Of a stretch of DNA of 64,000 nt, positions 11,754-54,600 are shown one piece after another. Source of the DNA: an uncultured Candidatus Rokubacteria bacterium (GTDB lineage: Bacteria > Methylomirabilota > Methylomirabilia > Rokubacteriales > DASRDR01); assembly GCA_963826115.1 (NCBI GenBank), contig CAWGVS010000012.1:48202-112201 (forward strand). The letters are read 5' to 3'. The notes under the pieces are model-generated. The model made no database searches. It was not told where the DNA came from and saw nothing but the letters and a program-made list of their open reading frames with translations. A program made the translations under genes and the position numbers. Positions within the stretch are counted from its first letter, which is position 1. Each line of letters opens with the position of its first letter.

Positions 11754-11821
11754 TCGCGCGCCGGGACCTCCTCGCGGGCCGGGTCCCCGGTGCCGTCGGA
11801 GGTCGCGGGCGCCCCGCTCGC

Positions 11822-11842
11822 GGCCCGGGTGTCACCCGGGCC
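11822..11842. terminator. GC-rich hairpin between convergent genes (PaaK-like gene and clpB), a possible bidirectional terminator
   Basis: GGCCCGGGTG-T-CACCCGGGCC inverted repeat in the 105-nt convergent gap. There is no clear U-tract. Confidence 0.35.
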
Positions 11843-11858
11843 GCGTCGCGCACCCCCG

Positions 11859-37835: not shown

Positions 37836-38813
37836 ATGGCCGAGCCGCTGCTCAGCGTCCGGAACCTGGTCAAGTACTTCCCGATCAAGGGCGGCCTCTT
37901 CTCGCGGGAGGTCGCGCGCGTCCACGCGGTCGACGGGGTCTCGTTCGACATCAACGCCGGCGAGACTCTCGGGCTGGTGGGTGAGTCCGGCTGCGGGAAG
38001 TCGACCACCGGCCGGTGCATCCTCCGTCTGATCGAGCCGACCTCGGGCGAGGTCTGGTTCGAGGGGAAGAACGTCACCACGATGGACAAGCGGTCGCTCC
38101 GGGCGCTCCGGCGCGACCTCCAGATCATCTTCCAGGACCCCTACGCGTCGCTGAACCCCCGGATGACCGTCGGGTCCATCGTGGGCGAGGCGCTCATCAT
38201 CCACAAGCTCGCCAAGACGCGGCGGGAGCGCGAGGAGAAGGTCGCGCACCTCCTGGAGACGGTCGGGCTCCACGCCGACCACATGCGCCGGTATCCCCAC
38301 GAGTTCTCGGGCGGCCAGCGGCAGCGGATCGGGATCGCCCGGGCGCTCGCGGTCAGCCCGAAGCTCATCGTCTGCGACGAGCCGGTCTCGGCGCTGGACG
38401 TCTCGATCCAGGCGCAGGTCATCAACCTCCTCGAGGATCTTCAGAAGCAGTTCAACCTGACGTATCTCTTCATCGCCCACGACCTCTCCGTGGTGGAGCA
38501 CATCAGCACCCGGGTCGCGGTGATGTACCTCGGGAAGATCGTCGAGGTCGCGTCGGCGAAGGACCTCTACTCGAACCCGCGCCACCCGTACACGGAGGCG
38601 CTGCTCTCGGCCGTGCCGATCCCCGACCCCGAGGTCAAGCGCCAGCGGATCCTGCTCGAGGGTGACGTCCCGAGCCCGATCCGGCCGCCGGCCGGCTGTC
38701 ACTTCCACACGCGCTGCCGGATCCGCCAGGTGCCGGGCCTCTGTCAGGACCAGGAGCCTCGGCTCAAGCAGGGCGCTTCGGGTCACCAGGTGTCCTGCCA
38801 CTTCCGGGACTAG
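37836..38813 (+). CDS. Oligopeptide/dipeptide ABC transporter ATP-binding protein (DppF/OppF-like)
   Basis: [28 protein letters not shown], and HPYTEALL. Confidence 0.9.
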
Positions 38814-39532
38814 CCCCGGCCCCCTCCGCCCGGCGCCGCGTCCCGGCCGAGGGCCGGCGCCGCGGTTTCCGGCCCGCCACGACGCCGGACGCGGGGCACG
38901 AGCGCCCCGGTCCGCGCAACGTAGTCCGCGTAGCCTGACAGCCCCGTCAGGAGCACCCGCTCTTCCTGGACGATCCGCCGCCGGTACGCGAGGCCAAGGA
39001 CCAGCGTCCCGAGGGCGGCGGCGACCCAGGCGCGCAGGAGGAGCGCGCTCCCCGCGAAAGCGAGGAGCGCGCCGACGTAGCTCGGGTGGCGGATCACGCG
39101 ATACGGCCCCTCCTCGACCACGCGCTGCGCGGGCGCGACGCCGACCTCGAGCGTGAACCAGCGGCCGAGCGTGACGATGGCCCAGGTGCGAAGCGCGAGG
39201 CCGGCGACCATGGCCAGGAGCCCCGTCGCCCCGACCGCGTCGAGGGGGAGCGCCGCGGGCCGGCGCAGGACGAGCTCGACCAGGGCCGCGGCCTGGGTCG
39301 CGTAGACGGCGAGCAGGATGGGAAGGAACGTCCCGCCGTCCACGGACGCCCGCGCGGTGGCGTGGAGCCGGTAGGACGGCTGGAGCACGTTCGCCAGGAC
39401 GCCGAAGGCGACGACGGCCCAGAGCGCGGGCCGCCCGAGCGCCTCCGGCCACCACCACAGGATGGGACCCCCGACGGCGCCCCACAAGAGGAAGGCCTGT
39501 CCGACCCGCCACGCGATCGCCTTCGCCGTCAT
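38810..39532 (-). CDS. Isoprenylcysteine carboxyl methyltransferase (ICMT/PEMT) family membrane methyltransferase
   Basis: ATG 39532 forms an ATGA overlap with the GH3 stop. Multi-TM, with [16 protein letters not shown] (the RHPxY motif). Confidence 0.8.
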
Positions 39533-41223
39533 TCCGTCTTCTCCTTCCAGGTCCGGAGCACCTCGCGGCGGCTCGCCTCGTCCCACTCGGGCGCGAGCGC
39601 CCGCCACTTGTGCTGCCCCTCGCGCCGACCGCGCGCGAACTCGGCCCGGCACTGCCGCTCGGCCCAGCCCTCGCGCATCACGGAGAGGCGGAGCGCGCCC
39701 AGCCGGCGGGACCGCCGCTTCGCCGCGTACTCGACGTTGACGTGGCCCAGCGCCTCGTCGACCGCTCGCGCGAACGCCTCCACGCCGATGTCGTCGAGTC
39801 CGGCCCCGCGCGGCTCGACGAGGAGGTCGTAGCGGCACGCGTCGACGTCGGGAATCATCCGGAGCTGCCAGAGCTCGACGCCGGTCGCGGCCTCGGCCGC
39901 CCGGACCGCCGTCTGCACGTGATTCAGATGGAGCTTCTCGCCGGTGAGGCTCGTCATGTCGCGGCCCTTCCGGACGAAGGCCAGGAGGGGCGTCCGGCGG
40001 TGGAAGCCCCGGACCTCGACGACGTCGTTCAGGTCATAGCGATAGAGCCCGCCGTCCGTGGTGAGCATCACACCGTAGCGGCGGCCCAACTCCAGCTCGT
40101 GCGCGAGGACGATCGGCGGATCGGCCCGGTCCATCGCCTCCTCCGGGACGAACTCGTAGAAGGCCGACTCGACGGCCAGGACGCCGGCCGCCGTGCCGTC
40201 GGCGAGCGGCACGGTCACGCGCCCCTCGCTCGCGACCAGCCCGAGGTCGCGCCGCGGCGCGGGGCCGTAGTCGGCGTCGAGCCGCTCCGCGTGGCGCCCC
40301 GCGTGTCCCCCGAGCCAGCAGCCGACGAGGGCGAGGTCGGGCCAGGCGTCCCCGAGATGGAGCGCTCCGCGCGCGCGGGCCGCCGCGGTCAGGGCGCGCG
40401 CCCGGACGGGATCGGCGCGCAACGCGGCGCCGAGCGCCCGGCGGACAGCCCGGGTGTCCCACCCCGGCTCCGCGTGGACGGTGGGCCACGGGATCCCGAG
40501 CGTGCCGTCGTGGATCGCGCGGAGGAGCGTGTCGGTCTGCTCCCGCGCGAGCGCCGCGAGCCGGAGGAGCGTCGTCGGGTTCGGCGTCCCGATCGTGGAG
40601 ACGGATCGCGCGAGAGCCAGGCGCAGGAGGACGAAGGCGCGCGCGTCATGGTCGACGATCAGGTGCGCGGCGTAGGGCGCGGCCTGACCTCGCCGGGCCA
40701 GGAACGGCAACCGCCGCTGGAGCAGACCGGACATCGCGCCGAACGGCACTCCCCCGGGTGTCGCCCCCTCGACCGCTGGGCTCACGACCGTCAGGAGCGC
40801 GCCGTCGAGCAACGCCGGGTGGTCCCGGGCCGCCCAGGCCAGCCAGAGGCGGACGAGGGCCGCCATGCGGGCGAGCCCGGAGGCGGTCACCGGCACCAGC
40901 TTGGGCTCGGCCGTGGTCCCGCTGGTCGTCGCGAAGGCGACCACCGGCTCGGCGGTGAGCACCGCCGGCTCGCCGGCCACGATGCGGCCGACGTACGGTC
41001 GGACACCCTCGTAGTCCCGCACCGGGACGGCGTGGCGGTAGGCGGCCGCGTCCGGAATCGCGGCGAAGCCGTGCTCCCGCCCGAAGGCGGTGCCCGCGTT
41101 CCGCGCGAGGAGCGCCCGCAGCACCTTCGCCTGGGCCTCCGCCGGCCGCGCGGTCGCCCGCTCGAAGTGGGTGGCGTGCGGCCAGGTCGCCGCGCGGAGC
41201 CCGGCCGCCAGGAGCGCGCCCAT
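39529..41223 (-). CDS. GH3 family protein (acyl-acid amido synthetase-like adenylating enzyme)
   Basis: ATG 41223 (MGALLAAGL) shares one base with the upstream stop (TGATG). FATTSGTTAEPKLVPVT and the overall GH3 layout. Length is 564 aa. Confidence 0.85.
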   Translation of the reverse strand: MGALLAAGLRAATWPHATHFERATARPAEAQAKVLRALLARNAGTAFGREHGFAAIPDAAAYRHAVPVRDYEGVRPYVGRIVAGEPAVLTAEPVVAFATTSGTTAEPKLVPVTASGLARMAALVRLWLAWAARDHPALLDGALLTVVSPAVEGATPGGVPFGAMSGLLQRRLPFLARRGQAAPYAAHLIVDHDARAFVLLRLALARSVSTIGTPNPTTLLRLAALAREQTDTLLRAIHDGTLGIPWPTVHAEPGWDTRAVRRALGAALRADPVRARALTAAARARGALHLGDAWPDLALVGCWLGGHAGRHAERLDADYGPAPRRDLGLVASEGRVTVPLADGTAAGVLAVESAFYEFVPEEAMDRADPPIVLAHELELGRRYGVMLTTDGGLYRYDLNDVVEVRGFHRRTPLLAFVRKGRDMTSLTGEKLHLNHVQTAVRAAEAATGVELWQLRMIPDVDACRYDLLVEPRGAGLDDIGVEAFARAVDEALGHVNVEYAAKRRSRRLGALRLSVMREGWAERQCRAEFARGRREGQHKWRALAPEWDEASRREVLRTWKEKTE

Positions 41224-42365
41224 CAGGCCGCCAGCTCGACCACGGCCCGGGCGTGGCGCCGCAGCCGATCGACGCGCACCCTGACGCCCCAGCCCGGCCC
41301 CGAGAGGAGCGGGGCCTCGCCCCCATGTCCGAACCGGAGCCCGTCGTCCGTCACGTCCTCGACGAGCAAGAGCGTGCCGTACGACCCTTCCACGAAGACA
41401 ACGCGCTCGAGTCCGGCCGCCAGGTGCCGGCCGGCGGCCGCGAGGATCGCGGTCTCGCCGACGTGGCTGCCGACCTGGACCTCGAGCCCGGCCGCCGCGG
41501 CGCGCCGCGCGATCGCCACCGAGCGCGCGAAGCCGCCGCACTTCGAGACGCGCACGTTGATCGCGTCGACGGCGCCGGTCGCGATGAGAGCGTCCACGTC
41601 GGCCAGCGTCACCGCGGATTCGTCCGCCACCAGCGGCAGCGGGCTGTCCACGCGCACGCGCGCCATGGTCTCCGGGCAGCCGGGGGCGATCGGCTGCTCG
41701 ACGCTCGCCACGCCGCACCGGGCCAGCGCGTCGAGCGCCGGACGCGCCTCGGCCGGGCTCCAGGCGCCGTTGGCGTCCACCCGGATCGTCGCGTCGGGTC
41801 CCAGGGCCGCGCGGACCGCGCGGACCCGGGCCACATCGTCGCCGATCCCGACCTTGACCTTCACCTGTCGGAGTCCCGCCAGCCGGGCCCAGCGAGCCTG
41901 GCGCGCCGCCTCGGCGGGCGTCCCGGCGCTGATCGCGCCGCCGTAGACGACGGCGCGCCGGCGAGGCGGCAGGAGGACGCTCGCGGAGCGACGACGGCGC
42001 CGAAGGGCCCAGTCGACGATGGCCAGCTCGAGCGCGGCGCGCGCCGCGTGGTGACGACCCGCGGCCGGCGCGCTGTCGGGCACGAGGCCCGGGACGACCT
42101 CGAGGGCCTCGGGGCTCTCGAGGTCGGGCGCCGCGAGCCCGGCGACCGCGGGCCAGAGGACCCGGGCGAGGTGCGCCACGACGTCCTCGGGCGTCTCCCC
42201 CGTCACGTACGGCCGCGGCGCCGCCTCGCCGAAGCCCTCGACCCCGTCCGCGTCCTGGACGCGGACGACGACCGAGTCGCTCCAGGCCCGCCCGGCGAGA
42301 CTGTGGCGGACCGTCGTGAGAAACGGGATGCGGAGCCGGTACACCGTGGCGCTCACGAGCCGCAT
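41223..42365 (-). CDS. Enolase superfamily enzyme (MR/MLE type: dipeptide epimerase, N-acyl amino acid racemase or OSBS-like)
   Basis: KVKVG..., IRVDANGAW, VEQP and LVADES metal-ligand pattern. The start is ATG 42365, or GTG 42356 (GTGA overlap). Confidence 0.85.
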   Translation of the reverse strand: MRLVSATVYRLRIPFLTTVRHSLAGRAWSDSVVVRVQDADGVEGFGEAAPRPYVTGETPEDVVAHLARVLWPAVAGLAAPDLESPEALEVVPGLVPDSAPAAGRHHAARAALELAIVDWALRRRRRSASVLLPPRRRAVVYGGAISAGTPAEAARQARWARLAGLRQVKVKVGIGDDVARVRAVRAALGPDATIRVDANGAWSPAEARPALDALARCGVASVEQPIAPGCPETMARVRVDSPLPLVADESAVTLADVDALIATGAVDAINVRVSKCGGFARSVAIARRAAAAGLEVQVGSHVGETAILAAAGRHLAAGLERVVFVEGSYGTLLLVEDVTDDGLRFGHGGEAPLLSGPGWGVRVRVDRLRRHARAVVELAA

Positions 42366-43048
42366 GGCGCGCCCTCCCCTTCCGTCAGCGCGAGCGTCTC
42401 CTCCCGGAAGTACCGCCGGAGGAACACGTTCTCGCGGAGCGTCATCTCGACGATCGCGAGCCCGTCCTCGTCGGCGAGCCCGTAGTAGCGGGCATAGGTC
42501 TCGAGGTCCTCGAGACCCTCGGCGGCGTGCTGGACGTCGACGTCGGCGTGCTCGGTCCACCAGCGGAGCGTCGTCGGGCCGAGCCCGCGGTGGGCCGCCA
42601 GGAAGGCGGCGACAGGGCCGGCCAGCCGCGCCAGCATGTACTCGAACGCCACCACCTCGCAGAAGGCCGCGAGCCCGACCTCGCCCAGGGTCCGGTAGAG
42701 CACGGGCTCGACGACGACGCGGCGGATGTCGTCGGCGGCCTGCGCCTCCAGCTCGGGGAGTCGCGGGCCCAGCCCCGCCCCGACGGCGAGCTGCCGGAGG
42801 AGTCCCGGGTGATGGAGCTCCTCCAGGAGGTTGCGGAGCCGGCTCTCGCTGGATGCCGGCGCCGCCACCGCGCAGAGGAAGGCCACATACTCGGTCGCCT
42901 TGAGGTGCGTCCGCACGACGTCGGCGACGAACCGGTCGTAGTAGCGGGGCGCCGCGGCGCCCGTCTCGAGCGCGCGGAACGGGCGCGACGCGGCCAGCTC
43001 CGCCACCTGAGTCTCCAGAATCGCCTCGATGCGGTCACGCAGGCTCAT
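42353..43048 (-). CDS. Iron-containing redox enzyme family protein (heme-oxygenase-like di-iron fold, PqqC/TenA-like)
   Basis: All-helical 231 aa with EELH (ExxH), FEYM and TEHADVDVQH (DxxH) ligand-like motifs. The family call is by pattern only. Confidence 0.55.
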   Translation of the reverse strand: MSLRDRIEAILETQVAELAASRPFRALETGAAAPRYYDRFVADVVRTHLKATEYVAFLCAVAAPASSESRLRNLLEELHHPGLLRQLAVGAGLGPRLPELEAQAADDIRRVVVEPVLYRTLGEVGLAAFCEVVAFEYMLARLAGPVAAFLAAHRGLGPTTLRWWTEHADVDVQHAAEGLEDLETYARYYGLADEDGLAIVEMTLRENVFLRRYFREETLALTEGEGAPCGS

Positions 43049-43060
43049 GCCGGTCCCTCC

Positions 43061-43648
43061 TCACGCGATGGCGAAGATGCGGTACGCGAGCCAGCCGAGC
43101 GCCGCGCCCGCCGGCAGGTCGACGATGTAGTGCTGCTTGGTGAAGAGGCACGAGAGCGCGATCAGCGCGGGGAACGCGAAGGCCCACGCGCCGAGGTGGG
43201 GCTGGAGGTAGAGCGCGGTCAAGGTCGCGACCGAGGTGTGCATGCTCGGGAAGCTGTTGGAGCGGGCGTCGATCCGCTGGACGAAGGCCAGGAACCGCTC
43301 CGACCACGTCCGGCCGCCGTTGAGCGTCCGCCACGCCTCGGGGGTCGCGACGGGGAACACGATGAAGCACGCCATCTGCATGGCCAGAAGCCCGAGAAAG
43401 CTGAGCGCGAGGTACACGAAGTCGCGGGACGACTCGAGCACCCAGTTCGTGTACAGGACGCCCGGCCAGTAGAAGAAGCCGTAGATCCAGGCCCACGCCG
43501 GCCAGAAGGGGATGCGGTCGTCGAGCGGAAGCCGGAGCTCCCGCACGGGCCGCAGCGGGTTCCGCTGGCACCAGAAGTAGAACTGGTACCCGCCGACGAT
43601 CAGGATCGTCCCCAGGAGGAGGTGCACGGCGAAGTCCGTCATGGTCAT
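43061..43648 (-). CDS. PAP2 superfamily membrane protein (AUR1/sphingomyelin-synthase-like PAP2_C type)
   Basis: Multi-TM, with SFPSMHTS and KQHYIVD (HxxxD) motifs. GGGAGGA SD in the 12-nt gap upstream. Confidence 0.75.
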   Translation of the reverse strand: MTMTDFAVHLLLGTILIVGGYQFYFWCQRNPLRPVRELRLPLDDRIPFWPAWAWIYGFFYWPGVLYTNWVLESSRDFVYLALSFLGLLAMQMACFIVFPVATPEAWRTLNGGRTWSERFLAFVQRIDARSNSFPSMHTSVATLTALYLQPHLGAWAFAFPALIALSCLFTKQHYIVDLPAGAALGWLAYRIFAIA

Positions 43649-43660
43649 CTCGGTCCTCCC

Positions 43661-44812
43661 TCACTGCGATCGGCGCGGCTCGGGGTGACGGTGCGCGAGG
43701 CCCGACGCGTCCTGGGCAAGGGCCCGGCCCAGGAGCAGGAACCCCGCGAAGGCGGTCAGATAGGTCGTCGAGAAGCGCCAGAGCAGGTTGTAGTAGGGCG
43801 CGATCGTGGCGGGCACGATGTCGGCCATGATCGAGAGCGAGGCGCTCTCGGCGATGCCGGCGCCCCCGGGCGTCGGCGCGAAGAAGACCAGGAAGATGAG
43901 CGCCATCTGGGCCTCGACGATCTGCCGCACGGTCCCGCCCTCGACCCCGAGGAAGCGGGCGCAGAGGTACGGCGTCAGCGCCCGAGCGAGAAGGAAGACC
44001 ACGCTGAGGAGGCAAACCGCCACGAGGGAGGCCCGGCCATGCCGGAGGAACCGCCGGACGTCGTCGCGGTAGGCGTAGAGGAGGTCCACCAGGCGCGCCG
44101 TCCGCGCGTCCATCCGGTCGACCGCCGGCGAGAGCGCGGGCGCGCCGGGCGGGCGCCAGTCGCGGAGGGCCGCGGGCCGCCCCACGAGCCGCCAGACCGC
44201 GCGCGACAGCGCGGCCAGCACGCGGCGGCAGAGATCCGGCCACGTCGCCCCGACGAGGAGCATCGCGGCGATGGCGGTGAGCGCCCAGACCGGCGCGAGG
44301 AAGAGGAGGCCGCTCGCGGCGATCCCGGAGATGAGGAGCGAGTAGAGCCCCAGCAGGAGGAGCCCGATCAGCGTGCCCATGAAGGACAGGAGCGTCGCCG
44401 TGAGGCCGGTCCCGACGGGGACGCCCCCGCCCCGCTTCAGCATGTAGATCTGCCCGGGGCCGCCCCCGGACTGCGACGGCGTCAGGAGGGCGACGGCGAC
44501 GTTCGCGAACTCGGACTGGAGGCACACCCAGAACGACACGCCGGGATGGAGGACGCGGCAGATGAGCCAGACGCGCGCAGCCGACGCGAGGCTCTCGATC
44601 GGCAGGACGAGGAGCAGCGGGAGGAAGTAGCGCCAGTGGAGGTCGGCGAGCCGCGGCGCGGGGACGCCCGACGCGCGTCCGAACAGCCAGCCGAACACTC
44701 CCACGGTCAGGCCCAGGAAGGCGAGCCCGCCCAGGAGGAGCCGGCCTCGCGACATCGCCGGCATGGTCGACATCTCTCGCTGGTCCATGACCGCCACCCC
44801 AGTCGTGCTCAT
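43661..44812 (-). CDS. UPF0104 / lysylphosphatidylglycerol-synthase-TM-region family, flippase-like membrane protein
   Basis: 383 aa, about 8 TM segments, TPSQSGGGPGQIYML and FAPTPGGAGIAE motifs. AAGGGAGGGG SD before ATG 44812. Confidence 0.8.
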   Translation of the reverse strand: MSTTGVAVMDQREMSTMPAMSRGRLLLGGLAFLGLTVGVFGWLFGRASGVPAPRLADLHWRYFLPLLLVLPIESLASAARVWLICRVLHPGVSFWVCLQSEFANVAVALLTPSQSGGGPGQIYMLKRGGGVPVGTGLTATLLSFMGTLIGLLLLGLYSLLISGIAASGLLFLAPVWALTAIAAMLLVGATWPDLCRRVLAALSRAVWRLVGRPAALRDWRPPGAPALSPAVDRMDARTARLVDLLYAYRDDVRRFLRHGRASLVAVCLLSVVFLLARALTPYLCARFLGVEGGTVRQIVEAQMALIFLVFFAPTPGGAGIAESASLSIMADIVPATIAPYYNLLWRFSTTYLTAFAGFLLLGRALAQDASGLAHRHPEPRRSQ

Positions 44813-44860
44813 CGCCCCTCCCTTGCGCCGGCTGTGCCGTCACGCATGCACCCAGGTGGG

Positions 44861-44875
44861 GCAATCGGGGTGCCA
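44861..44875 (-). promoter_or_regulatory. Sigma-54 (-24/-12) promoter TGGCAC-CCCGA-TTGC for the six-gene operon 44812..38810
   Basis: The reverse complement of 44861-44875 is TGGCACCCCGATTGC (GG-N10-GC, full consensus hexamer and TTGC). It lies about 50 nt upstream of ATG 44812. An AT-rich patch sits immediately upstream, and a divergent EBP-type gene lies 125 nt away. Confidence 0.75.
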
Positions 44876-45000
44876 TGACAAAAGTGTCAACTATAACAAG
44901 GCGTTACGGTCGTGGTCCACGATCACCCACTGACTCCACCGGGTGTGGCGGCGGCAATGGTGGGTGAAACTTCGCCACCCCCGGAGTAGGATGGGCCCCC

Positions 45001-48000
45001 ATGGCCACCCCGCGCCTGGCCGAGCTACTCGGGGACAGCCCGGGGATGCGCGCCCTCCGGGAGACGGCGACGCGACTGCTACAGCGGCAGTCAGAGCGCG
45101 ACCGGTCGCCGTCGGGCGGCGGGCCGCCGCCGGCGGGCCGCCTGCCACCGGTGCTGATCCAGGGCGAGACGGGGGTCGGCAAGGGGCTACTCGCGCGAGC
45201 CCTCCACCGCGCGGGGCCGCGGGCGGCCGGGCCCTTCGTCGACGTGAACTGCGCGGCGATTCCCGAGACCCTGCTCGAGGCCGAGCTCTTCGGCTACGAG
45301 CGCGGCGCGTTCACGGACGCGCGACATCCGAAGGCCGGTCTCTTCCAGACCGCGAACCACGGCACGATCTTCCTCGACGAGGTGGGCCTCCTCCCGGAGG
45401 CGCTCCAGGCCAAGCTCCTGAAGGCGCTCGAGGACCGCGCCGTGCGTCGGCTCGGGAGCACCCGGACCGAGCCGATCGACGTCTGGATCCTCACGGCCAG
45501 CAACGAAGACCTGGCGGCGGCCATGCGCGCCCGGCGGTTCCGCGAGGACCTCTATCACCGGCTCGCGGTGATGGTGCTCGGCATCCCGCCGCTGCGGGAG
45601 CGAGGCGAGGACATCGTTCGCCTCGCGACCCACTTCCTCGGCCGCGCGTGTGCGGAGTACCGCCTGCCCTCGCGCACCCTCACGCCCGAGGCACGGGCGG
45701 CCCTCCTCGCCTACCCGTGGCCCGGGAACGTGCGCGAGGTGGCGAACGTGATGGAGCGGGTTGCGCTCCTGTCCGATGCGCCGGTGGTGACCGCGGAGCT
45801 CCTCGGATTGCCGGGGGCTCCCTCGCCGCCGGGCGCGGCCGTTCCGGGGGAAGCGCCGGACGCCGGGGACGCGGGATCGGCGGCGCTCGCCGACGCGCTC
45901 GGGAGCGTGGAGCGGGTGCATCTGATGGAGGCGCTTCGCCAGACGGGGGACAACGTCACGCGGGCCGCCGCGCGTCTCGGAATCTCGCGGGACACGCTCC
46001 GATATCGCATGGCCAAGCACGGCATGAGTCGTGAGGCTCCCGCGCGCCCGGCGGCGGCGCGGAGCCGGTCCGCCCGCGTCGAGCCGCCGGCCGCGGCCGG
46101 CGGGCGGGCCGTGCCCGCGGGCGCGGCCGCCAGGGATACCGGGGCGGGGCCCACCACCGAGGGAGGCGGGCCACTGGCCGTGCGGTGGGAAGGCCGGCGC
46201 CTCGCGTTCCTCCGGAGCGCGCTCGTTCTGCCGGTCGACGCCGATCCCGGATGGAGCCCGAGCCGCGGGCTCGAGACGCTGGTCGAGAAGATCCAGACCT
46301 TCGGCGGCGCGATCGAGGAGATGAGCCCGACGGGCATCGTCGCGACCTTCGGGCTCGAGCCGATCGAAGACGCCCCGCAGCGCGCCGCCCTCGCCGCGAC
46401 GGCGGTGCACAAGGCCGCGGAGCGGGCGGGAGGCGGCGATGGCGCGGCGGTCGGCGTGCGCTCGGGGATCGCCTTCCGGCGCGTCCTCGTCGGGACCTCG
46501 CGCAGCGGGATCCAGATCGATCTGGACGGCAAGCGCGAGGCCTGGGCGGTGCTCGACGCACTCCTCGGCGCCGCCGAGCCCGGCGCCATCCTCGTCGAGG
46601 AGGCCGCGGCAACCCTCCTCTCCCGCCACTTCGACCTCGTGCCGGTCGGCAGCGCCCGCGCGGGCGGCCCGGTCCACCGCCTGGCCACCGAGCGGCGGGG
46701 CCCGAGCGCCGGACGGCGGCCTCCGACGTTCGTGGGGCGCGGACGCGAGCTCGGGCTCCTCTGGAGCCGGCTCGAGGACGCGCTCCGGGGCCACGGACAG
46801 GTGGTCGGGCTGGTGGGCGAGGCCGGCATCGGGAAGTCGCGCCTGCTGCACGAGTTCCGCGAGCGCGTCCTCGCCGAGCCGGAGCGCCGAGTCACCTACC
46901 TCGAGGGACGGTGCCACTCGTACGCCCGCGCCGTTCCCTACGTGCCGGTCATGGACGTCCTCCGCGCCAACTTTCGCGTCGCCGAGAGCGACAACCCGGA
47001 GACCACCGCCGAGAAGATCCGCGCGGGGCTGGGCGAGGTGGGCATCGAGACCGCCGCGGCCGTCCCCTACCTCTTCCGCCTCTTCGGGCTCCCGGAAGGC
47101 GCCGACGCGCCCGCCGAGCTCCCCTCGGCCGTCAAGGCCCGCACCTTCGAGGTGCTGCGTCAGCTCATCCTCCTCGGCGCCCGCCGGCGGCCGATCCTCT
47201 TCGTCGTCGAGGACCTCCACTGGATCGACTCCACCTCCGAGGAGTGCTTCACCGCGCTCATGGACAGCGCCGCCAAGGCGTCAGCCATGTGCATCGTGAC
47301 CTACCGGCCGGGCTACCGCGCGCCGTGGATGGACCGCTCGTACGTCACCCAGGTCGCCCTGCCCCCGCTCTCGCGCGAGGAGAGCCTGAGCGTGGTCCGC
47401 TCGATCCGGCGGGCCGACGCCGTGCCCGACCGGATGGCCGAGGTGATCCTGGAGAAGGCGGAAGGCAACCCCTTCTTCCTGGAAGAGCTGTCGCGTGCGG
47501 TCGAGGGCGCGATCGATCTCCCGGCGGGCCCCGCCGTGCCCGACACCATCCAGGAGGTGCTCCTCGCCCGGATCGACCGGCTGGCCGACGAGCCCCGGCG
47601 ACTCCTGCAAACGGCCGCCGTCGTCGGGCCGGAGGTGCCGCTCCCGTTGCTCCGCGCCGTGTGGGAGGGGGAGCTCGACGTGCATCTCCGCGAGCTCATG
47701 CGCCTCGAGTTCCTCTACGCGAAGACCGGCGGCAGCGACCCCCTCTGCGCCTTCACCCACAGCCTCACCCGCGACGTGGCCTACGAGAGCCTGCCGCGCG
47801 GACGTCGCCGGGCCCTCCACGGCACGATCGCGCGGGCGCTCGAGGCAATGCACGCCGACCGGCTCGCGGACGTGTACGACCGGCTGGCCCACCACTACGG
47901 GCGGACGGACGAGGCGGCCCGGGCGGTCCACTATCTGACGCTGCTCGCCGACAAGGCGGTCGCGGCGAACGCCCACACGGAGGCGGTCCGGATCCTCGAG

Positions 48001-49176
48001 GAGGCGCGGGCCCACGTGGACCGCCTGCCCGCTGGCGAGCAGGACCGGCGGCGACTCGAGCTCGCGCTCCGCCAGGCCTACTCCCTGATCCCGCTCGGCC
48101 TCTTCCAGGACGTCGTGGATCTCCTCCTCCGTCACCAGGTGGCGCTGGAGAACCTCGACGACCCTCGGCTCGCCGGGTCCTATCACTTCCTGCTCGGGCG
48201 GAGCTACCTGTTCCTCGGCGACCAGCGACAGGCCTCGGACCACCTCGAGCTCGGGCTCGGGGAAGCGATGCGCGGCGACGACGAGACGACACGGGGACGG
48301 ATCCACTACGTGCTCGCCCAGCACGCCGCGATGGCCGGCCATCCGCGCGACGGTCTCGGGCATGCGCGCCAGGCCATCCAGTTCCTCGAGCGGACCGTCG
48401 AGCCGTGGTGGATCGGCCCCGCCCACTGGGCGCTCGGGCTGAACCACACGGTTCTCGGGGAATTCGACGCCGCCCTCGCGGCCCAGGCGCGGGCGACGGC
48501 CCACGGCCACGCCGTGGGCGATCCGCAGATCATCGCCTCCGCGCACTGGGCGAGTGGGCTCGTCCACGTGTGCCGGGGCGACTGGGAGACGGCGATCCGG
48601 AGCTGCGAGGAGGCGCTCGCGCTCTCGCCCGACCCCTTGAACACGGCGATGGCCCTCGGGTGGCTCGGCGTGGCGTGGCTCGAGCGGGGGGAGCTCGGCC
48701 AGGCCGTCCCGCGGCTCGAGGAGGCCCTCCGTCTCCACGAGCAGTTCGGGTTCCGGCAAGCGCAAGCCTGGTTCTCGACGTTTCTCGCCGAGGCGCACCA
48801 GCGCGCGCAGCGGCTCGAGACCGCCCTCGAGCTCGCGAGCCAGGGACTCGACCTCGCCAGGGCCACCCGGATGCCGCAGGGCACCGGCTGGGCCGAGCGC
48901 ACGCTCGGCCACATCGCTCAGGCCCGGGGGGCCCTCGGAGACGCGGAGGACCATCTCCGCGAGGCGCTCCGCGTCTTCGAGCTCGTGGAGGCGCGCTTCG
49001 AGATCGCCCGCACCCGCCTCGACCTCGCCGCGCTCGCGCGCGCGCGTGGCCAGTCGGTCGCGTGCGCGGAACACCTGGCCGAGGCGCACCGGGAGTTCCG
49101 GGCCCTCGCCGTCCCGCGATGGGTCGAGCGGGCGGAAGCATGCGCGCGCGACTGGGGCCTCGCCCTCTCGCGGTAG
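45001..49176 (+). CDS. Giant multidomain regulator: sigma-54 activator AAA+ core, Fis-type HTH, degenerate class III cyclase-homology domain, STAND/AAA_16 NTPase, TPR array
   Basis: GETGVGKG Walker A, GAFTDA loop, IFLDEVG Walker B, NVTRAAARLGISRDTLRYRMAKHG HTH, FGGAIEEMSPTGIVATFGLEPIEDAPQRA (cyclase-like, metal Asp residues lost), and LVGEAGIGKSRLLHEF, followed by about 600 aa of TPR-like repeats. Confidence 0.9.
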   Translation: MATPRLAELLGDSPGMRALRETATRLLQRQSERDRSPSGGGPPPAGRLPPVLIQGETGVGKGLLARALHRAGPRAAGPFVDVNCAAIPETLLEAELFGYERGAFTDARHPKAGLFQTANHGTIFLDEVGLLPEALQAKLLKALEDRAVRRLGSTRTEPIDVWILTASNEDLAAAMRARRFREDLYHRLAVMVLGIPPLRERGEDIVRLATHFLGRACAEYRLPSRTLTPEARAALLAYPWPGNVREVANVMERVALLSDAPVVTAELLGLPGAPSPPGAAVPGEAPDAGDAGSAALADALGSVERVHLMEALRQTGDNVTRAAARLGISRDTLRYRMAKHGMSREAPARPAAARSRSARVEPPAAAGGRAVPAGAAARDTGAGPTTEGGGPLAVRWEGRRLAFLRSALVLPVDADPGWSPSRGLETLVEKIQTFGGAIEEMSPTGIVATFGLEPIEDAPQRAALAATAVHKAAERAGGGDGAAVGVRSGIAFRRVLVGTSRSGIQIDLDGKREAWAVLDALLGAAEPGAILVEEAAATLLSRHFDLVPVGSARAGGPVHRLATERRGPSAGRRPPTFVGRGRELGLLWSRLEDALRGHGQVVGLVGEAGIGKSRLLHEFRERVLAEPERRVTYLEGRCHSYARAVPYVPVMDVLRANFRVAESDNPETTAEKIRAGLGEVGIETAAAVPYLFRLFGLPEGADAPAELPSAVKARTFEVLRQLILLGARRRPILFVVEDLHWIDSTSEECFTALMDSAAKASAMCIVTYRPGYRAPWMDRSYVTQVALPPLSREESLSVVRSIRRADAVPDRMAEVILEKAEGNPFFLEELSRAVEGAIDLPAGPAVPDTIQEVLLARIDRLADEPRRLLQTAAVVGPEVPLPLLRAVWEGELDVHLRELMRLEFLYAKTGGSDPLCAFTHSLTRDVAYESLPRGRRRALHGTIARALEAMHADRLADVYDRLAHHYGRTDEAARAVHYLTLLADKAVAANAHTEAVRILEEARAHVDRLPAGEQDRRRLELALRQAYSLIPLGLFQDVVDLLLRHQVALENLDDPRLAGSYHFLLGRSYLFLGDQRQASDHLELGLGEAMRGDDETTRGRIHYVLAQHAAMAGHPRDGLGHARQAIQFLERTVEPWWIGPAHWALGLNHTVLGEFDAALAAQARATAHGHAVGDPQIIASAHWASGLVHVCRGDWETAIRSCEEALALSPDPLNTAMALGWLGVAWLERGELGQAVPRLEEALRLHEQFGFRQAQAWFSTFLAEAHQRAQRLETALELASQGLDLARATRMPQGTGWAERTLGHIAQARGALGDAEDHLREALRVFELVEARFEIARTRLDLAALARARGQSVACAEHLAEAHREFRALAVPRWVERAEACARDWGLALSR

Positions 49177-49186
49177 ACTGGCGGGC

Positions 49187-49720
49187 GTGTCGCTCGACAT
49201 CGAGCCCCTGACCCCGGCGGGCGTGCAGGCCCACCGCCACGTTCTGGCCGCCCTCCTCCGCGACGCGGTGGACAGCGGCGCGTCCGTCGGTTTCCTCCCG
49301 CCGCTCTCCGACGCCGAGGCGGTCGCGTACTGGGACACCGTCGCGGCCGCCGTCGACGAGGGCTCGCGGCTGGCCCTGGTCGCCCACGATCAGGCCCTGG
49401 GGCTCGTGGGCTCCGCCCAGCTCGACCTCGCGATGCGCGCGAACGCCCGGCATCGGGCCGAGGTGTCGAAGGTGATGGTCCACCAGCGGGCCCGCCGCCG
49501 CGGGGTCGGCCGCGCCCTCATGCTCGCGCTCGAGGATCACGCCCGCCGGCTCGGGCGCACGACGCTCATCCTCGACACGCGCCAGGGGGATCCGTCGGAG
49601 ACGCTGTACCGGTCGCTCGGCTGGACGTTCGCCGGCGCGATCCCCGCGTACGCCCGCAGCGCCTCCGGCGCCCTCGACGCGACGGCCTACTACTACAAGC
49701 TCCTCGACCGGGCCCCCTGA
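49187..49720 (+). CDS. GNAT family N-acetyltransferase
   Basis: GTG 49187, 10 nt after the regulator stop. RRRGVGRALM acetyl-CoA motif. 177 aa. Confidence 0.85.
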   Translation: MSLDIEPLTPAGVQAHRHVLAALLRDAVDSGASVGFLPPLSDAEAVAYWDTVAAAVDEGSRLALVAHDQALGLVGSAQLDLAMRANARHRAEVSKVMVHQRARRRGVGRALMLALEDHARRLGRTTLILDTRQGDPSETLYRSLGWTFAGAIPAYARSASGALDATAYYYKLLDRAP

Positions 49721-49736
49721 CCGGGCCCGCCGGCCC

Positions 49737-51116
49737 TCAGGCCAGAGGCTCGCTGGCTGGCTCGACGGAGCCCGGCGTCTCCGCGCCCCGCCCGAGGGCG
49801 GCGTAGGCGGCGAGGCGCGCGTCCCGCCGCTGCGCGACGAAGCGCAGGAGGCGCGCCTCCGTCTCGCGCCGCGTGTACGTCCGCTCGAACAGCCAGCGGA
49901 GCCCCGCCTCGAGCTCCTCGACCGTCATGCGCTTCGGGCGGTAGGTCACGTCGAAGAGCGTGCACCGGTCCCAGTACCGCTCCTGGAGGAGGCGGCCCTC
50001 GCGGCGGAGCCGCGCGTGGAGCGGCGTGCCCGGGAACGGCGTCAGGACCGTGTACTGCACCTCCGCCAGCCCGGAGCTCCGGACGAACTCCAGCACGTCG
50101 CCGAAGACGTCGGGCGTGTGGGCGTCGAGGCCCAGGATGAAGCAGCCGTTGACGCTCACCCCGCGCGACTGGAGCGTGTCGATGGCCCGCCGGAGGCGCG
50201 GCGCCTGGCGCCGCTTCCACTCGGCGGGGTCCAGGCCCGTCAGGTCGTCGGCCCGCGGGCTCTCGAAGCCGATGAGGAGCTGGCGACAACCGGAGGCGGC
50301 GAGCCGGGCGCAGAGCCGGGGGTCGTCGGCCACGGAAACATCGGTCTCCGTGAAGTAGCGGATCCCCTCCGGCGTCACCGCGCGAAGGAACTCGTCGGTC
50401 CAGCGCCGGTCGAGGAAGCTGTTGTCGTCCGCCAGCTCGAAGAACGGCTCCGCGACGTGGGGACGCGCCGCCCGGATCTCGGCGATCACGCGGTCCACCG
50501 GCTTCTGGTTGAAGCGCGACGTGATCCGGAGGCTCGCCGCGCAGAACTCGCAGGCGCGCGGGCAGCCCCGTGAGGTCTGGACCGTGACCCGGTTGTACGG
50601 GCGCCCCGCGAGGAGGTCGAAGCGGGGCGCGGCGTAGAGGTCGGGCTCGAAGACCCGCTCGCGCGCCCCCTGGTAGACGCGCGCGAGCCGGCCCTGCTCG
50701 GCGTCCGCCACGAGCCGCGGCCACGCGCCCTCGGCGCCGCCCACCACCACGGCGTCGGCGTGCTGGAGCGCCTCGTCGGGCAGGAGTGACACGTGAAGGC
50801 CCCCCAGCACGACGGGGGTGCCGCGCGCCCGGAAGCGGCCCGCCAGCTCGTACGCCGCGTCGATCCGGGCTGTGAAGCTCGAGATCCCGACGAGGTCGAA
50901 CTCCGGCACGGGCTCGATGCTCCGGAGGTCGTCCACCTCGAGGTAGTGGACGTCATGCCCCGGGGGCGTGAGCCCGGCCACGGTGAGGAGCCCGAGGCTC
51001 GGCAGCTGCGCGATGACGCGACCCCGCCGGACGAAGCCCGGCAGCGTGACCCCGAGCGCCGCAAGCTCGGCCGTGCGGACGCGGACGCCGCTCATCGCGA
51101 TCAGCCCGATCCTCAC
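49737..51116 (-). CDS. B12-binding domain-containing radical SAM enzyme
   Basis: GTG 51116 forms a GTGA overlap with the upstream stop. N-terminal B12-binding fold (DLVGISSFTARIDAAYELA...GTPVVLGG) and TSRGCPRACEFCA (CxxxCxxC). Confidence 0.9.
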   Translation of the reverse strand: MRIGLIAMSGVRVRTAELAALGVTLPGFVRRGRVIAQLPSLGLLTVAGLTPPGHDVHYLEVDDLRSIEPVPEFDLVGISSFTARIDAAYELAGRFRARGTPVVLGGLHVSLLPDEALQHADAVVVGGAEGAWPRLVADAEQGRLARVYQGARERVFEPDLYAAPRFDLLAGRPYNRVTVQTSRGCPRACEFCAASLRITSRFNQKPVDRVIAEIRAARPHVAEPFFELADDNSFLDRRWTDEFLRAVTPEGIRYFTETDVSVADDPRLCARLAASGCRQLLIGFESPRADDLTGLDPAEWKRRQAPRLRRAIDTLQSRGVSVNGCFILGLDAHTPDVFGDVLEFVRSSGLAEVQYTVLTPFPGTPLHARLRREGRLLQERYWDRCTLFDVTYRPKRMTVEELEAGLRWLFERTYTRRETEARLLRFVAQRRDARLAAYAALGRGAETPGSVEPASEPLA

Positions 51117-51592
51117 GGGACGGCTCCGTCGCTCGCGCCCAGGGCGCGTCCGGGCAGCCCGGCCGCCAGGAGGCCGACCGCGCCGATCAGCGCCAGCACG
51201 GGAGCCGGCAGGAGATAGCATCCGGGTCCCCAGAACGCCCCCAGGACGAGGACGCACGGGAGCGCCACCGTGCCGAAGAGGAGGCAGCGACACCCCGCGC
51301 GCCGCGTGGCGCGGCTCCATCGCGTCCTCGCCATCCACGGGATGTAGAGGAGGTTCAGCACCGGCAGCGCGATCGCGGCGATGTGCCCGAGCCGCACGAG
51401 CCGCCGCGGGAGGTCGTCGAACGCGCGGAACCCCGGCGGCGGGGCCACGGGCCCGCCGAAGGACCAGAGCCCGAGCACGGCGCCGCCAGCCATGCTGATC
51501 CCGATCATCCACCACGCGACCCGGACGTTGACGTGCCCCGGGGGCCGCCCCGTCCGATTCGCGCCGCTCACCAGCCCAGCCTCTCTGTCCAT
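51113..51592 (-). CDS. Hypothetical integral membrane protein (159 aa, about 4 TM segments)
   Basis: Hydrophobic segments WWMIGISMAGGAVLGLW, IAAIALPVLNLLYI, CLLFGTVALPCVLVLGAF and PVLALIGAVGLLAAG. Translationally coupled to the radical SAM gene. Confidence 0.6.
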   Translation of the reverse strand: MDREAGLVSGANRTGRPPGHVNVRVAWWMIGISMAGGAVLGLWSFGGPVAPPPGFRAFDDLPRRLVRLGHIAAIALPVLNLLYIPWMARTRWSRATRRAGCRCLLFGTVALPCVLVLGAFWGPGCYLLPAPVLALIGAVGLLAAGLPGRALGASDGAVP

Positions 51593-51619
51593 GGTGTCCT
51601 GCTTGCACTCTCAGGGAGG

Positions 51620-51634
51620 GCAATGGGGATGCCA
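51620..51634 (-). promoter_or_regulatory. Sigma-54 (-24/-12) promoter TGGCAT-CCCCA-TTGC for the membrane-protein/radical-SAM operon
   Basis: The reverse complement of 51620-51634 is TGGCATCCCCATTGC (GG-N10-GC), about 28 nt upstream of ATG 51592. With one flanking base it matches the promoter at 44861 in 14 of 16 positions. A divergent EBP paralog lies adjacent. Confidence 0.7.
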
Positions 51635-51668
51635 CCAGGCGCAATCAACGAAAAAACAGGAGGTTGCG

Positions 51669-54600
51669 ATGGCCATCGGGCTACCGATCCAGGCCGGTGT
51701 GGTGGGGGAACCCCCAATCTGGGTGGGGGAGCGGCGCATGGGAACGGGTCACTCCAGCCGCCCCAACGGGCGTAAGATACCGCCACCCATGGGCCCGCTC
51801 GCCGCGCTCCTCGGCGACTCGCCCGCCATCAAGGCGCTTCGGGAGAAGGTCGCCCGGCTCCTTCAGCACCCGTCCGACCGCGGGCGACTGCCGCCGGTCC
51901 TCATACAGGGCGAGACCGGCACCGGCAAGGGTCTGCTCGCCGACGTCCTCCATCGCGAGGGGCCTCGGGCGGACCAGCCATTCGTCCCCGTCAACTGCGC
52001 CGCCATCCCCTTGAACCTGCTCGAGGCGGAGCTGTTCGGCTTCGAGCGAGGCGCGTTCACGGACGCGCGACAGCCGAAGCCCGGGCTGTTCCAGGCGGCC
52101 AACCGGGGCACGCTCTTCCTCGACGAGATCGGAGAGCTGCCGCTCGAGCTCCAGGCGAAGCTCCTCAAGGTCCTGGAGGACCGCACCGTGCGCCGGCTGG
52201 GCGCCACGCGCTCGGAGCCGGTCGACGTCTGGATCGTCACGGCGAGCAACGAGGACCTGGAGGCCGCGGTGCGCGAGCGCAAGTTCCGCGAGGACCTCTA
52301 CCACCGCCTCGCCGTCTTTCCCCTGCGCATGCCGCCGCTCCGCGAGCGCGGCCACGACGTCATCCTCCTCGGCGAGCACTTCCTCCGGCAGGCCTGCGCC
52401 GAGTACGCGCTGCCGGTGAAGTCGCTCGCGCCCGACGCGCGCGCCGCGCTCCTCGCGCATCCGTGGAAGGGCAACGTCCGCGAGTTGACGAACACGATGG
52501 AGCGCGTCGCGGTCCTGGTCGACGCCCCGGTCGTGACGGCGGTCATGCTGGACCTGTCGGTTCCGCCGGACCGCGTCGAGGCCTCGGGCAAGGCGCCGTC
52601 GGACTCCGCCCCCTCGAGCCGGGCGCTCGGCGAAACGCTGGACGCCGTCGAGCGGCACCGGCTCCTCGAAGCGCTCGACGAGACCTTCTGGAACGTGACG
52701 CGCGCCGCCCGCCGGCTCGGGATCTCGCGCGATACCCTGCGCTACCGGATCGAGAAGCACGGGCTCCGGTCGGGCGGGCGGCGGTCCGCAGCCGAACCGC
52801 CGCCCACCGCCGAGCTGACACCGGCGCCGCCGCCTCGCCCGCCGGTCACCCCGGAGGCGCCGGCCGCCGCGATCCGCTGGGAGCAGCGGCGCGTGACGCT
52901 CCTCCGGGCCGTGATCGATGGCCCACCGCTCGCGGACGACCGGCTGTATCCGACCCGGCTGATCGAAGCGCTCCAGGAGAAGGCGCTGACCTTCGGGGGC
53001 CGCGTGGAGGACCTCGGTCCCACCGGGATCGTGGCCAGCTTCGGGCTCGAGCCCGTCGAGGACGCGACCCGCCGGGCCGCGCACGCGGCGGTGGCGATCC
53101 GCAAGGCCGTCGAGCGCGAGAGGCGCGCCGAACCCCCGATCACGGTGCGCATGGGCATCCACGTGACCCAGCTCCTCGTCGGGCACGCCGGGCGCGACAT
53201 TCGGCTCGAGCTGGACGGCAAGCGTCGGGCCTGGGACGCGCTCGAGCGGCTCGTCCTGCGGGCCGATCCGGACCGGACGGTCGTGTCCGAGGCCGCGGGC
53301 CCGTTCCTGGACCGGCGGTTCGCGCTCGTGCTCCTCCCGGCGCCCGGGCCCGGCGACACCCCGGTCTATCGTCTCGACGGCGTCGAGCGGGGCGGCCTCG
53401 GGTCGGGCCGGCGGCTCACGGTCCTGGCGGGGCGCGGCCGCGAGCTGGAGTTCCTGCGGGACCGGCTCGCCTCCGCGGCCGAGGGGCGCGGCCAGGTGGT
53501 GGGCATCGTGGGCGAGGCCGGCATCGGCAAGTCGCGCCTCCTGCACGAGCTCCGGAAGAGCCTCCGGGGCGAGCGCGTCGCCTGGTTCGAGGGCCACTGC
53601 CCCTCGTACGGGAGCGCCGTGCCCTACCTGCCCGTCATCGCGATCCTCCGGCGGAGCTTCCACATCGCCGAGAGCGACAGCCCGGCCTCGACGGCGCGCA
53701 AGGTCCGGTCGAGGCTCGAGGAGCTCGGCATGGACCCGGAGGAGTACGCCGTCTACCTCCACCATCTCCTCGGCGTGAAGCACGAGACGGAGCGCCTCAG
53801 CATGCTCACGCCCGAGGCCATCCGGGCCCGGACCGTCGACGCCCTTCGCCAGATGGGCCTCCGCGGCAGCCGACAGCGGCCGACCGTGTACGTCTGCGAA
53901 GACCTCCAGTGGATCGACCGCACGTCCGAGGAGTGCCTGCACGCCCTCCTCGAGACCACCACGGGCGCCTCCGTCCTGTCGCTCTTCACGTACCGCCCCG
54001 GCTACCACCCGCCCTGGATGAACAAGTCCTACGCGACCCAGCTCGCGCTTCAGCCGCTCTCGCGGGGCGACAGCGAGCAGATCGTCGAGTCCCTGCTGCT
54101 GGCCCGCGGCGGCCACGACGCCCTCGCGCCCGCGATCCTCAGCAAGGCCGAGGGCAACCCGTTCTTCCTCGAGGAGCTCTGCCGGACCGTGGCCGAGCAG
54201 CCCGACGCGGCCGGCGGGCTCGCGGTGCCGGACACGGTCCAGGAGGCGTTGCGGGCGCGGATCGACCGCCTGCCGGAGGACGTGAAGGACGCCCTCCGCC
54301 TGGCCTCGGTCATCGGTCGCGAGGTCCCGTTGCGGCTCCTCCAGGCCGTGTGGCGGGGCCCGGGCGACATCGAGCGGCACCTCCGCGAGCTGACGCGGCT
54401 CGAGTTCCTGTTCGAGCAGACCCGGTTCGGCGAGTCCGTCTACGTCTTCAAGCACGCGCTCACGCAGGAGGTCGTGTACGACAGCCTGCCGGTCACGCAC
54501 CGGCATGCCCTCCACGCGGCGGCGGCGCGCGCCCTCGAGCGGCTCTACGAGGGCCGCCTCGAGGAGGCGGACGACCGGCTCGCGTATCACTACGCCCGCA

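Follow-up and report, generated by a model that had tools for sequence, protein, structure and literature searches.

A 64,000-nucleotide (nt) window from an uncultured Candidatus Rokubacteria bacterium (contig CAWGVS010000012.1, positions 48,202 to 112,201; about 73% G+C) carries six open reading frames (ORFs) on its minus strand at 44812..38810, preceded by a sigma-54 type promoter element and a divergent activator gene. The first ORF, g1 (44812..43661, 383 amino acids (aa)), matches the PF03706 LPG_synthase_TM domain (101.9 bits) and the TIGR00374 flippase-like family (73.4 bits), and g2 (43648..43061, 195 aa) is a PAP2 protein (PF14378 PAP2_3, 58 bits). These are followed by g3 (43048..42353, 231 aa), a heme-oxygenase-like (HO-like) protein (PF14518 Haem_oxygenas_2); g4 (42365..41223, 380 aa), an enolase-superfamily protein with MR_MLE_N and MR_MLE_C domains (164 bits for MR_MLE_C); g5 (41223..39529, 564 aa), a GH3-type ligase with 195, 74 and 46 bits for its N, M and C domains; and g6 (39532..38810, 240 aa), which matches ICMT with 70.1 bits (cut-off 24) and PEMT with 50 bits. 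These Pfam and NCBIfam matches bear out the six ORFs and the families assigned to them in an earlier note on this DNA, which had read them as one six-gene unit. The locus is best explained as a composite sigma-54-dependent operon of two modules, A (g1 and g2) and B (g3 to g5, here with g6).

The junctions between the genes are exactly those that the note had listed (12 nt with a Shine–Dalgarno sequence twice, a 13-nt or GTGA overlap, TGATG and ATGA). Gaps of 12 nt separate g1 from g2 and g2 from g3, with GGGAGG ahead of g2 and GGAGGG ahead of g3; the overlap of g3 and g4 is 13 nt (4 nt should g4 start at the GTG at 42356), that of g4 and g5 is 1 nt and that of g5 and g6 is 4 nt. Purine-rich ribosome-binding sites precede g1 to g4, and a signal scan of the operon detected no internal promoter or terminator signals above chance. 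Judging from this spacing and the absence of internal signals, the six genes are probably transcribed together from the sigma-54 promoter. At the distal end, the stop codon of g6 overlaps that of a convergent oligopeptide-type ABC ATPase gene (37836-38813, plus strand) at 38810-38813, which leaves no space for a terminator between them. Rfam identified no RNA family in the whole window.

The conservation of these genes was assessed in a metagenome scan seeded on the HO-like protein, which returned 80 loci; counts are given only from loci with enough sequence. An enolase-family gene comes after the HO-like gene in 52 of 55 loci and a GH3 gene follows in 32 of 34, and the order of this trio is always HO-like, enolase, GH3 in the oxidase-seeded loci counted. 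Four loci (L001, L003, L007 and L008) contain only these three genes, in that order. PAP2 and flippase-like genes lie upstream in 7 of 34 loci, an ICMT gene is present in 3 of 27, and a sigma-54 activator is encoded upstream of the HO-like gene in 20 of 34. The HO-like and enolase parts are also found fused in single proteins of 619-624 aa (P0391 and P0393, the latter at 590-2449 of L096), and a GH3 gene follows such a fusion in L096. In P0391 the enolase part shares 46% identity with g4 and has the EGS motif described below. Fusion is strong evidence that both parts act on the same metabolite. The HO-like/enolase/GH3 linkage is thus obligate, fusions included, and the two modules are separable.

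The single six-gene pathway proposed in the earlier note therefore stands in part: the tight junctions hold up, but the six genes are not one conserved unit, as only the trio travels together at the frequencies above. Co-occurrence of all six genes in relatives, on which the note had staked the proposal, is likewise found only halfway. All six are present with the same flanks as the window in L005 and L094 and co-occur in a further close relative, L015; two more distant relatives, L023 and L049 (HO-like identity 56-61%), retain them partly, and the arrangement is not general. L049 is collinear with the window through g1 to g5 and has no g6, whereas L023 has the two modules adjacent in a different order, with ICMT between the HO-like and enolase genes. 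In L033 and L034 an ICMT gene comes after GH3, with no flippase-like or PAP2 gene. Because ICMT accompanies the trio at differing positions in L023, L033 and L034, it belongs with module B. The complementary case is L093, a collinear locus with only the flippase-like and PAP2 genes, which blastn aligns to window positions 49738..43060 and again from 38849; it is without exactly g3 to g6, leaving a clean 4.2-kb gap relative to the window.

Beyond ICMT, several other proteins recur beside the trio. A predicted four-helix membrane protein of about 145 aa, with the motif IPIVFHWVLA..L..GR and no Pfam family, is encoded in about 17 trio loci (among them L003 at 11713-12150, L008, L027, L044, L045, L048, L067, L074, L083, L089 and L090) and is absent from the window. 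Its gene usually comes after GH3 and sometimes before the HO-like gene. It is not a cut-down ICMT (hhalign probability 0.16%). A CAT-like acyltransferase is a trio partner in L080 and L081. Metagenomes contain abundant GH3 homologues with 55-88% identity; the few with names come from Methylomirabilota and Deltaproteobacteria metagenome-assembled genomes (MAGs), and one HO-like homologue comes from a Thermoleophilia MAG. When reference-genome contigs were scanned with the GH3 alignment, matches to the generic TSGTTxEPK adenylation motif dominated, which leaves no species-resolved distribution; the scan yielded only one distant locus (L006), a planctomycete GH3 gene at a contig end without useful neighbours.

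Some loci depart from the standard cassette. In L009 (8001-12881) and L010, the HO-like and enolase genes are followed by SRPBCC and asparagine-synthase-like amidotransferase genes in the place of GH3, and the variant cassette adjoins polysaccharide genes (Wzy_C, GNVR). L048 and L090 each have two HO-like paralogues, the second of them with a sigma-54-like element of its own: L090 has the order enolase, GH3, small membrane protein, HO-like, and L048 has one HO-like copy before the enolase–GH3–small membrane protein run and a second after it. An enoyl-CoA hydratase (crotonase) domain is fused to an HO-like domain in P0416. A GNAT-aminotransferase fusion upstream of the trio in L007 was considered as a clue to a ceramide or N-acyl-amino-acid synthase and dropped; its GNAT part scores under the FeeM and Acetyltransf_5 cut-offs, and its aminotransferase part is histidinol-phosphate/CobD-like and not of the serine palmitoyltransferase type.

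The HO-like protein g3 was modeled with AlphaFold2 (AF2; predicted local distance difference test (pLDDT) 90), and its top structural matches were CADD, HrmI and UndA, with template modelling (TM) scores up to 0.72 and sequence identities of 14-20%. Its identity to solved heme-oxygenase-like di-metal oxidases (HDOs) is 13-20%. Conserved candidates for metal ligands are E76/E77, H80, E136, H167, D171 and H174, of which E136, H167, D171 and H174 align to E142, H174, D178 and H181 of CADD. The predicted structure and the sequence together give g3 the helical HO-like fold and the His/carboxylate metal site of an HDO. The family is compact, with 54 clusters (50% identity) at E<=1e-30 among 1.84 billion representatives. 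On its model, g3 is predicted to be an HDO of a small, sharply bounded, uncharacterised family. A self-sacrificing 4-aminobenzoate synthase of the CADD type was rejected, as the sacrificial Tyr27 and Lys152 of CADD are replaced by F24 and R145. This loss is assigned with moderate confidence from a low-similarity profile alignment that starts at CADD residue 30, with R145–Lys152 within the aligned region and F24–Tyr27 paired by a 3-residue back-extension.

Across 42 family members of g4, K169-V-K171, D197, E223, D248 and K275 are conserved, which supply the K-x-K of strand 2, the Lys of strand 6 and the Asp/Glu/Asp metal ligands of the muconate-lactonizing subgroup. At the strand-8 position g4 has an invariant E326-G-S, where YkfB has D-F-D and 2p88 has V-E-L. 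The best match in the Protein Data Bank (PDB) is 2p88 (E 3e-35, 125 bits), which we take to be the N-succinyl-Arg/Lys racemase of Bacillus cereus, followed by dipeptide epimerases; all NCBIfam equivalogs score far under their cut-offs (for example DgcA, 138 against 400). By its sequence, g4 would be a racemase/epimerase-like enzyme of this subgroup. Since E-G-S replaces D-x-D and 2p88 is nearest, the signature points to an N-substituted amino acid as substrate and not a free dipeptide. A dipeptide epimerase identity was rejected, as g4 is without the D-x-D that binds the free N-terminal ammonium.

The ligase g5 has the three domains and the three nucleotide motifs of GH3 acyl acid amido synthetases, the latter invariant in 16 homologues (T100-S-G-T-T-x-E-P-K108, S332-E-G and R395-Y-D397 within YRYD). 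Against plant GH3 structures, its matches are no stronger than E 1e-33. The only curated family match is OlsH (NCBIfam NF052613), over residues 22-223 only and at 91.1 bits, short of the equivalog cut-off of 620. OlsH is a bacterial GH3 enzyme that makes N-acyl-ornithine, an ornithine lipid precursor, from free fatty acid, ATP and ornithine, and its operon also encodes a lipid methyltransferase (PMC12493201). With the OlsH score under the cut-off and no OlsI at the locus, identity with the OlsHGI operon was rejected. As a precedent, OlsH would nonetheless make concrete the lipid pathway that the earlier note had suggested.

The best PDB match of g6 is the isoprenylcysteine methyltransferase Ma-ICMT (4a2n, E 5e-9, residues 99-215). 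It passes the Pfam gathering score and has the C-terminal cofactor-binding region of ICMT-type membrane methyltransferases; NCBIfam scores are under cut-off for both isoprenylcysteine O-methyltransferase (isopcys_mtase, 64 bits against 160) and LmtA (37 bits). Its sequence is closest to the isoprenylcysteine carboxyl O-methyltransferases, which suggests an integral-membrane O-methyltransferase. ICMT-family enzymes act on lipidated substrates. By analogy, methylation of the free carboxylate of a lipidated amino acid by g6 would parallel the known ICMT reaction.

In module A, g1 is a stand-alone flippase-like domain of the MprF N-terminal type without a synthase domain, and it has no sequence match in the PDB. 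MprF itself was rejected as the identity of the locus, as Pfam places an aminoacyl-phosphatidylglycerol (PG) synthase domain in none of the six proteins. The PAP2 protein g2 has the invariant motifs P-S135-M-H137 and H173-Y-x-x-D177 (the C2/C3 motifs with their His-His-Asp triad), its family profile matches AUR1 in the PDB at E 3e-4, and Foldseek with the AF2 model (pLDDT 85) ranks AUR1, an inositol phosphorylceramide (IPC) synthase, first and second (TM 0.67) and SMSr third. With these motifs and this nearest fold, g2 is a predicted transferase of the AUR1/sphingomyelin synthase (SMS) type, as the note had suggested. AUR1-type relatives use an N-acylated amino alcohol, ceramide. No Kei1-like partner, ceramide synthesis genes or inositol genes were seen in the locus.

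A PAP2-seeded search recovered module A proteins in other settings. In L091 (2107-8591) a large activator gene stands opposite a TAtT-DctP-DctQM-SRPBCC-flippase-like-PAP2 operon, and in L092 and L095 (4112-8591) the TRAP transporter genes TAtT-DctP-DctQM are followed by PAP2; only L091 of these three has the flippase-like gene. The PAP2_3 orthologues of L091, L092 and L095 are 65-69% identical to g2. In L092 and L095 the PAP2 gene also lies near an Aas-like acyl-ACP synthetase/acyltransferase gene and a run of small lipoproteins. Unnamed ORFs beside the PAP2 gene in L023, L091 and L095 were rejected as a shared partner, being unrelated lipoproteins of no common family.

The sigma-54 type -24/-12 element TGGCACcccgaTTGCc (44875..44860, minus strand) lies 48 nt before the g1 ATG. 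It reads TGGCAC-N5-TTGC, which contains the GG-N10-GC pattern, and, with 1 mismatch, is the best sigma-54 match in the window. Matches with <=2 mismatches occur in the window at the chance level (9 found against 9.7 expected); the element is made credible by its position and its conservation in eight related loci, and not by the pattern count. In L004, L005, L015, L016, L022, L049, L093 and L094 the orthologue of the first gene has the same element 55-121 nt ahead of it, and 15 of 600 control windows contained one. Facing the operon is a regulator gene (45001..49176, plus strand) for 1391 aa without an N-terminal sensor domain, whose sigma-54 AAA+ domain (Pfam Sigma54_activat, 192 bits) and HTH_8 stand ahead of a STAND-type AAA_16/MalT-TPR region. 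Its sigma-54 contact loop is GAFTDA, not the usual GAFTGA, as is that of its paralogue in the window. An orthologue of this regulator is encoded divergently from the flippase-like gene in L004, L005, L015, L049 and L094, and in L091 it is divergent from the TAtT operon; in L093 it is represented only by fragmented gene calls. A predicted sigma-54 promoter and an adjacent Sigma54_activat/HTH_8 protein are thus both present. The position of the element, its conservation in the eight loci and the adjacent activator uphold the sigma-54 control that had been proposed for the operon. Among loci with the trio alone, 10 of 71 have an upstream sigma-54 element at the threshold used, even where an activator gene is adjacent, so that such control of stand-alone cassettes is not established.

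Further features surround the promoter region. Directly upstream of the sigma-54 element is a patch (44880-44919, minus strand) that is AT-rich, unusual in this window, and holds a sigma-70-like match (TGGACC, 18 nt, TATAGT); it could be a second promoter or a site for a bending protein. A GNAT acetyltransferase ORF (49046-49720, plus strand, stop-to-stop from 49046) overlaps the end of the activator gene at 49176, is found at the same position in L004, L005, L093 and L094, and may be co-transcribed with the regulator. The second, paralogous activator (51381-55862, plus strand) has the same unusual order of Sigma54_activat, HTH_8, AAA_16 and TPR and faces a sigma-54-like element, TGGCATCCCCATTGCC, at 51619-51634 (minus strand). 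Downstream of TGGCATCCCCATTGCC are genes for a 159-aa membrane protein without a Pfam match (51113-51592, minus strand) and a B12-binding radical SAM enzyme (49737-51017, minus strand). L091 has the identical 16-mer 122 nt upstream of its flippase-like gene.

From these observations we tentatively propose, at somewhat below an even chance, that module B makes an oxidised, epimerised and O-methylated N-acyl amino acid and that module A performs lipid head-group transfer and flipping. The GH3 enzyme would adenylate a carboxylic acid and then ligate this to an amino acid through the amino group; the enolase-superfamily enzyme would invert the alpha-carbon of the resulting N-substituted amino acid; the HO-like di-metal oxidase would carry out O2-dependent tailoring of the same molecule; and the ICMT-type enzyme would O-methylate the remaining acidic group within the membrane. 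In module A, the AUR1-like phospho-head-group transferase would modify a membrane lipid and the MprF-type flippase-like protein would move it across the membrane. The product of module B may be the acceptor or partner lipid of module A in this lineage, and the divergent sigma-54 activator, with its STAND-type sensor, would switch on both modules together. What we infer here is which acyl group and amino acid serve as substrates, how the steps are ordered, which group is methylated and whether a substrate passes between the modules. An N-acyl amino acid is suggested by the OlsH precedent, the N-acyl-type signature of g4, the AUR1-like neighbour and the partners of the trio, which are membrane or hydrophobic in character: ICMT (window, L023, L033 and L034), the 145-aa protein, the CAT-like acyltransferase and SRPBCC (L009).

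Several points weigh against this proposal. Because g5 is as far from OlsH as from the plant GH3 enzymes, a fatty-acid substrate is only an analogy; there is also no equivalent of the alpha/beta-hydrolase O-acyltransferase OlsI, and Pfam finds an alpha/beta-hydrolase domain in none of the six proteins. The occurrence of module A without module B elsewhere (L091-L093 and L095) means that a shared substrate is not required, and most trio loci are without an ICMT, flippase-like or PAP2 gene. Co-transcription is deduced from spacing and missing internal signals, and for all six proteins it is the substrate that we infer. Finally, the HDOs characterised so far act mostly on free amino acids (PMC13185094), a preference that fits a small-molecule product equally well.

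The main alternative, which we consider rather doubtful, is that module B amounts to a minimal gene cluster whose product is small and water-soluble, such as a modified pseudo-dipeptide or acyl-D-amino acid serving as antimetabolite, signal or chelator. The HDO would tailor a side chain, GH3 would ligate and the enolase-family enzyme would epimerise, with the membrane proteins left for export, self-protection or unrelated envelope functions. Besides the amino acid preference of HDOs, clusters that combine an HDO with ligases make short peptides, for example mangotoxin (PMC13185094). The lysine N-oxygenase HrmI is among the closest structural relatives of g3, the many conserved arginines of the HO-like family would match a polar substrate rich in carboxylates, a membrane partner is missing from many trio loci (L001 and L007 among them), and in L009 the asparagine-synthase-like amidotransferase replaces GH3. 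Yet an integral membrane protein is encoded downstream of GH3 in about half of the loci with room there, ICMT-family enzymes are known for lipidated substrates, and no transporter gene is conserved with the trio in the oxidase-seeded loci. The sole characterised bacterial GH3 enzyme, moreover, uses fatty acids (PMC12493201).

A second alternative, which we regard as unlikely, holds that the modules are biochemically independent and share only a promoter: g1 and g2 would remodel a common phospholipid, and the four-gene cassette would have been inserted downstream with an unrelated role. The clean 4.2-kb presence or absence of g3 to g6 between collinear genomes fits this well, as does the occurrence of module A alone or with TRAP transporter genes and of module B alone in most loci; the sigma-54 element, too, precedes the flippase-like gene with or without the cassette. 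Set against this, the modules are adjacent in the distant L023 (in another order) and L049 (without ICMT), suggesting retained or recurrent pairing, the 12-nt PAP2/HO-like junction with its own ribosome-binding site marks tight integration, and trio-only loci are often beside a sigma-54 activator as well (20 of 34). Least likely, and improbable in our view, is a catabolic or salvage route, modelled on the N-succinylation and racemisation of D- to L-amino acids around the 2p88 racemase of B. cereus, in which a D- or L-amino acid or an acyl-amino-acid conjugate would be N-acylated, racemised and oxidatively degraded under sigma-54 control of nitrogen or carbon scavenging: 2p88 is the nearest solved relative of g4, some loci have hydrolase genes nearby (penicillin amidase in L007, alpha/beta hydrolases in L001 and L008) and sigma-54 activators commonly control catabolic operons, but the trio has no conserved deacylase or amidohydrolase partner, an ATP-consuming ligase and a methyltransferase are unusual for catabolism, and the membrane partners are left unexplained.

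The proposal of a tailored N-acyl amino acid can be carried further, as a long shot. The cassette with ICMT would then be the missing genetic basis of oxidatively tailored N-acyl-D-amino acids or their methyl esters, acting as lipids or signals; with this product as a ceramide-like acceptor, the AUR1-like transferase would form a new phospho-lipoamino acid, which the flippase-like protein would carry to the outer leaflet in response to a signal relayed by sigma-54.

None of the six proteins reached the cut-off of a curated NCBIfam equivalog model, and no paper in the searchable literature mentions this gene combination, in keeping with the earlier note, which knew of no characterised pathway with this composition. 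We know of no cultured or characterised representative among the cassette carriers. Bacterial GH3 enzymes have only recently been tied to membrane-lipid synthesis, and unusual chemistry is being found in HO-like oxidases at a growing pace; in this locus both are tied to an enolase-family enzyme in a compact, sometimes fused cassette, which turns up repeatedly in metagenomes of soil and sediment and in MAGs with the labels Methylomirabilota, Deltaproteobacteria and Thermoleophilia. The conserved HO-like/enolase/GH3 cassette is a more interesting object than the six-gene operon. Solving it would give a function to a whole orphan HDO family and a second chemical role to bacterial GH3 ligases. Should the lipid interpretation be true, it would reveal regulated envelope-lipid modification in a poorly known phylum; should the small-molecule interpretation be true, a three-gene route to a D-amino-acid-containing metabolite.

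Among known systems, MprF shares with the locus a flippase domain (PF03706, TIGR00374) coupled to a lipid head-group modifying enzyme, and differs in its aminoacyl-PG synthase domain, the partner here being a separately encoded PAP2 transferase. AUR1 and the sphingomyelin synthase-type transferases share the His-His-Asp motifs kept by g2, with AUR1 the best match by profile and fold, whereas g2, at 195 aa, has roughly half the length of AUR1 and 23% identity to it. The N-succinyl/N-acyl amino acid racemases and dipeptide epimerases of the enolase superfamily (2p88, 1sja, 1tkk and 3jva) agree with g4 in subgroup fold, in the acid/base pair of K-x-K and Lys and in three Mg ligands, and 2p88 is, like g4, without the D-x-D ammonium-binding motif; all are remote matches, and none of these known enzymes is fused to or paired with an HDO. 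Clusters of the mangotoxin mboA-F type resemble module B in encoding an HDO together with ATP-dependent amide ligases for a small amino-acid-derived product (PMC13185094). Their ligases are of the ATP-grasp and not the GH3 type, they have no enolase-family partner or HO-like/enolase fusion, and the HO-like family found here is separate. The OlsH-OlsG-OlsI system of Singulisphaera acidiphila likewise places a GH3-type ligase gene beside a membrane-lipid methyltransferase gene (PMC12493201). It differs in having OlsI, in having no HO-like oxidase, enolase-family enzyme, PAP2 or flippase-like protein, and in that OlsG is an N-methyltransferase whereas g6 is nearest to carboxyl or phosphate O-methyltransferases. 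Of these systems, the locus would work most like a GH3-dependent lipoamino-acid pathway with added tailoring.

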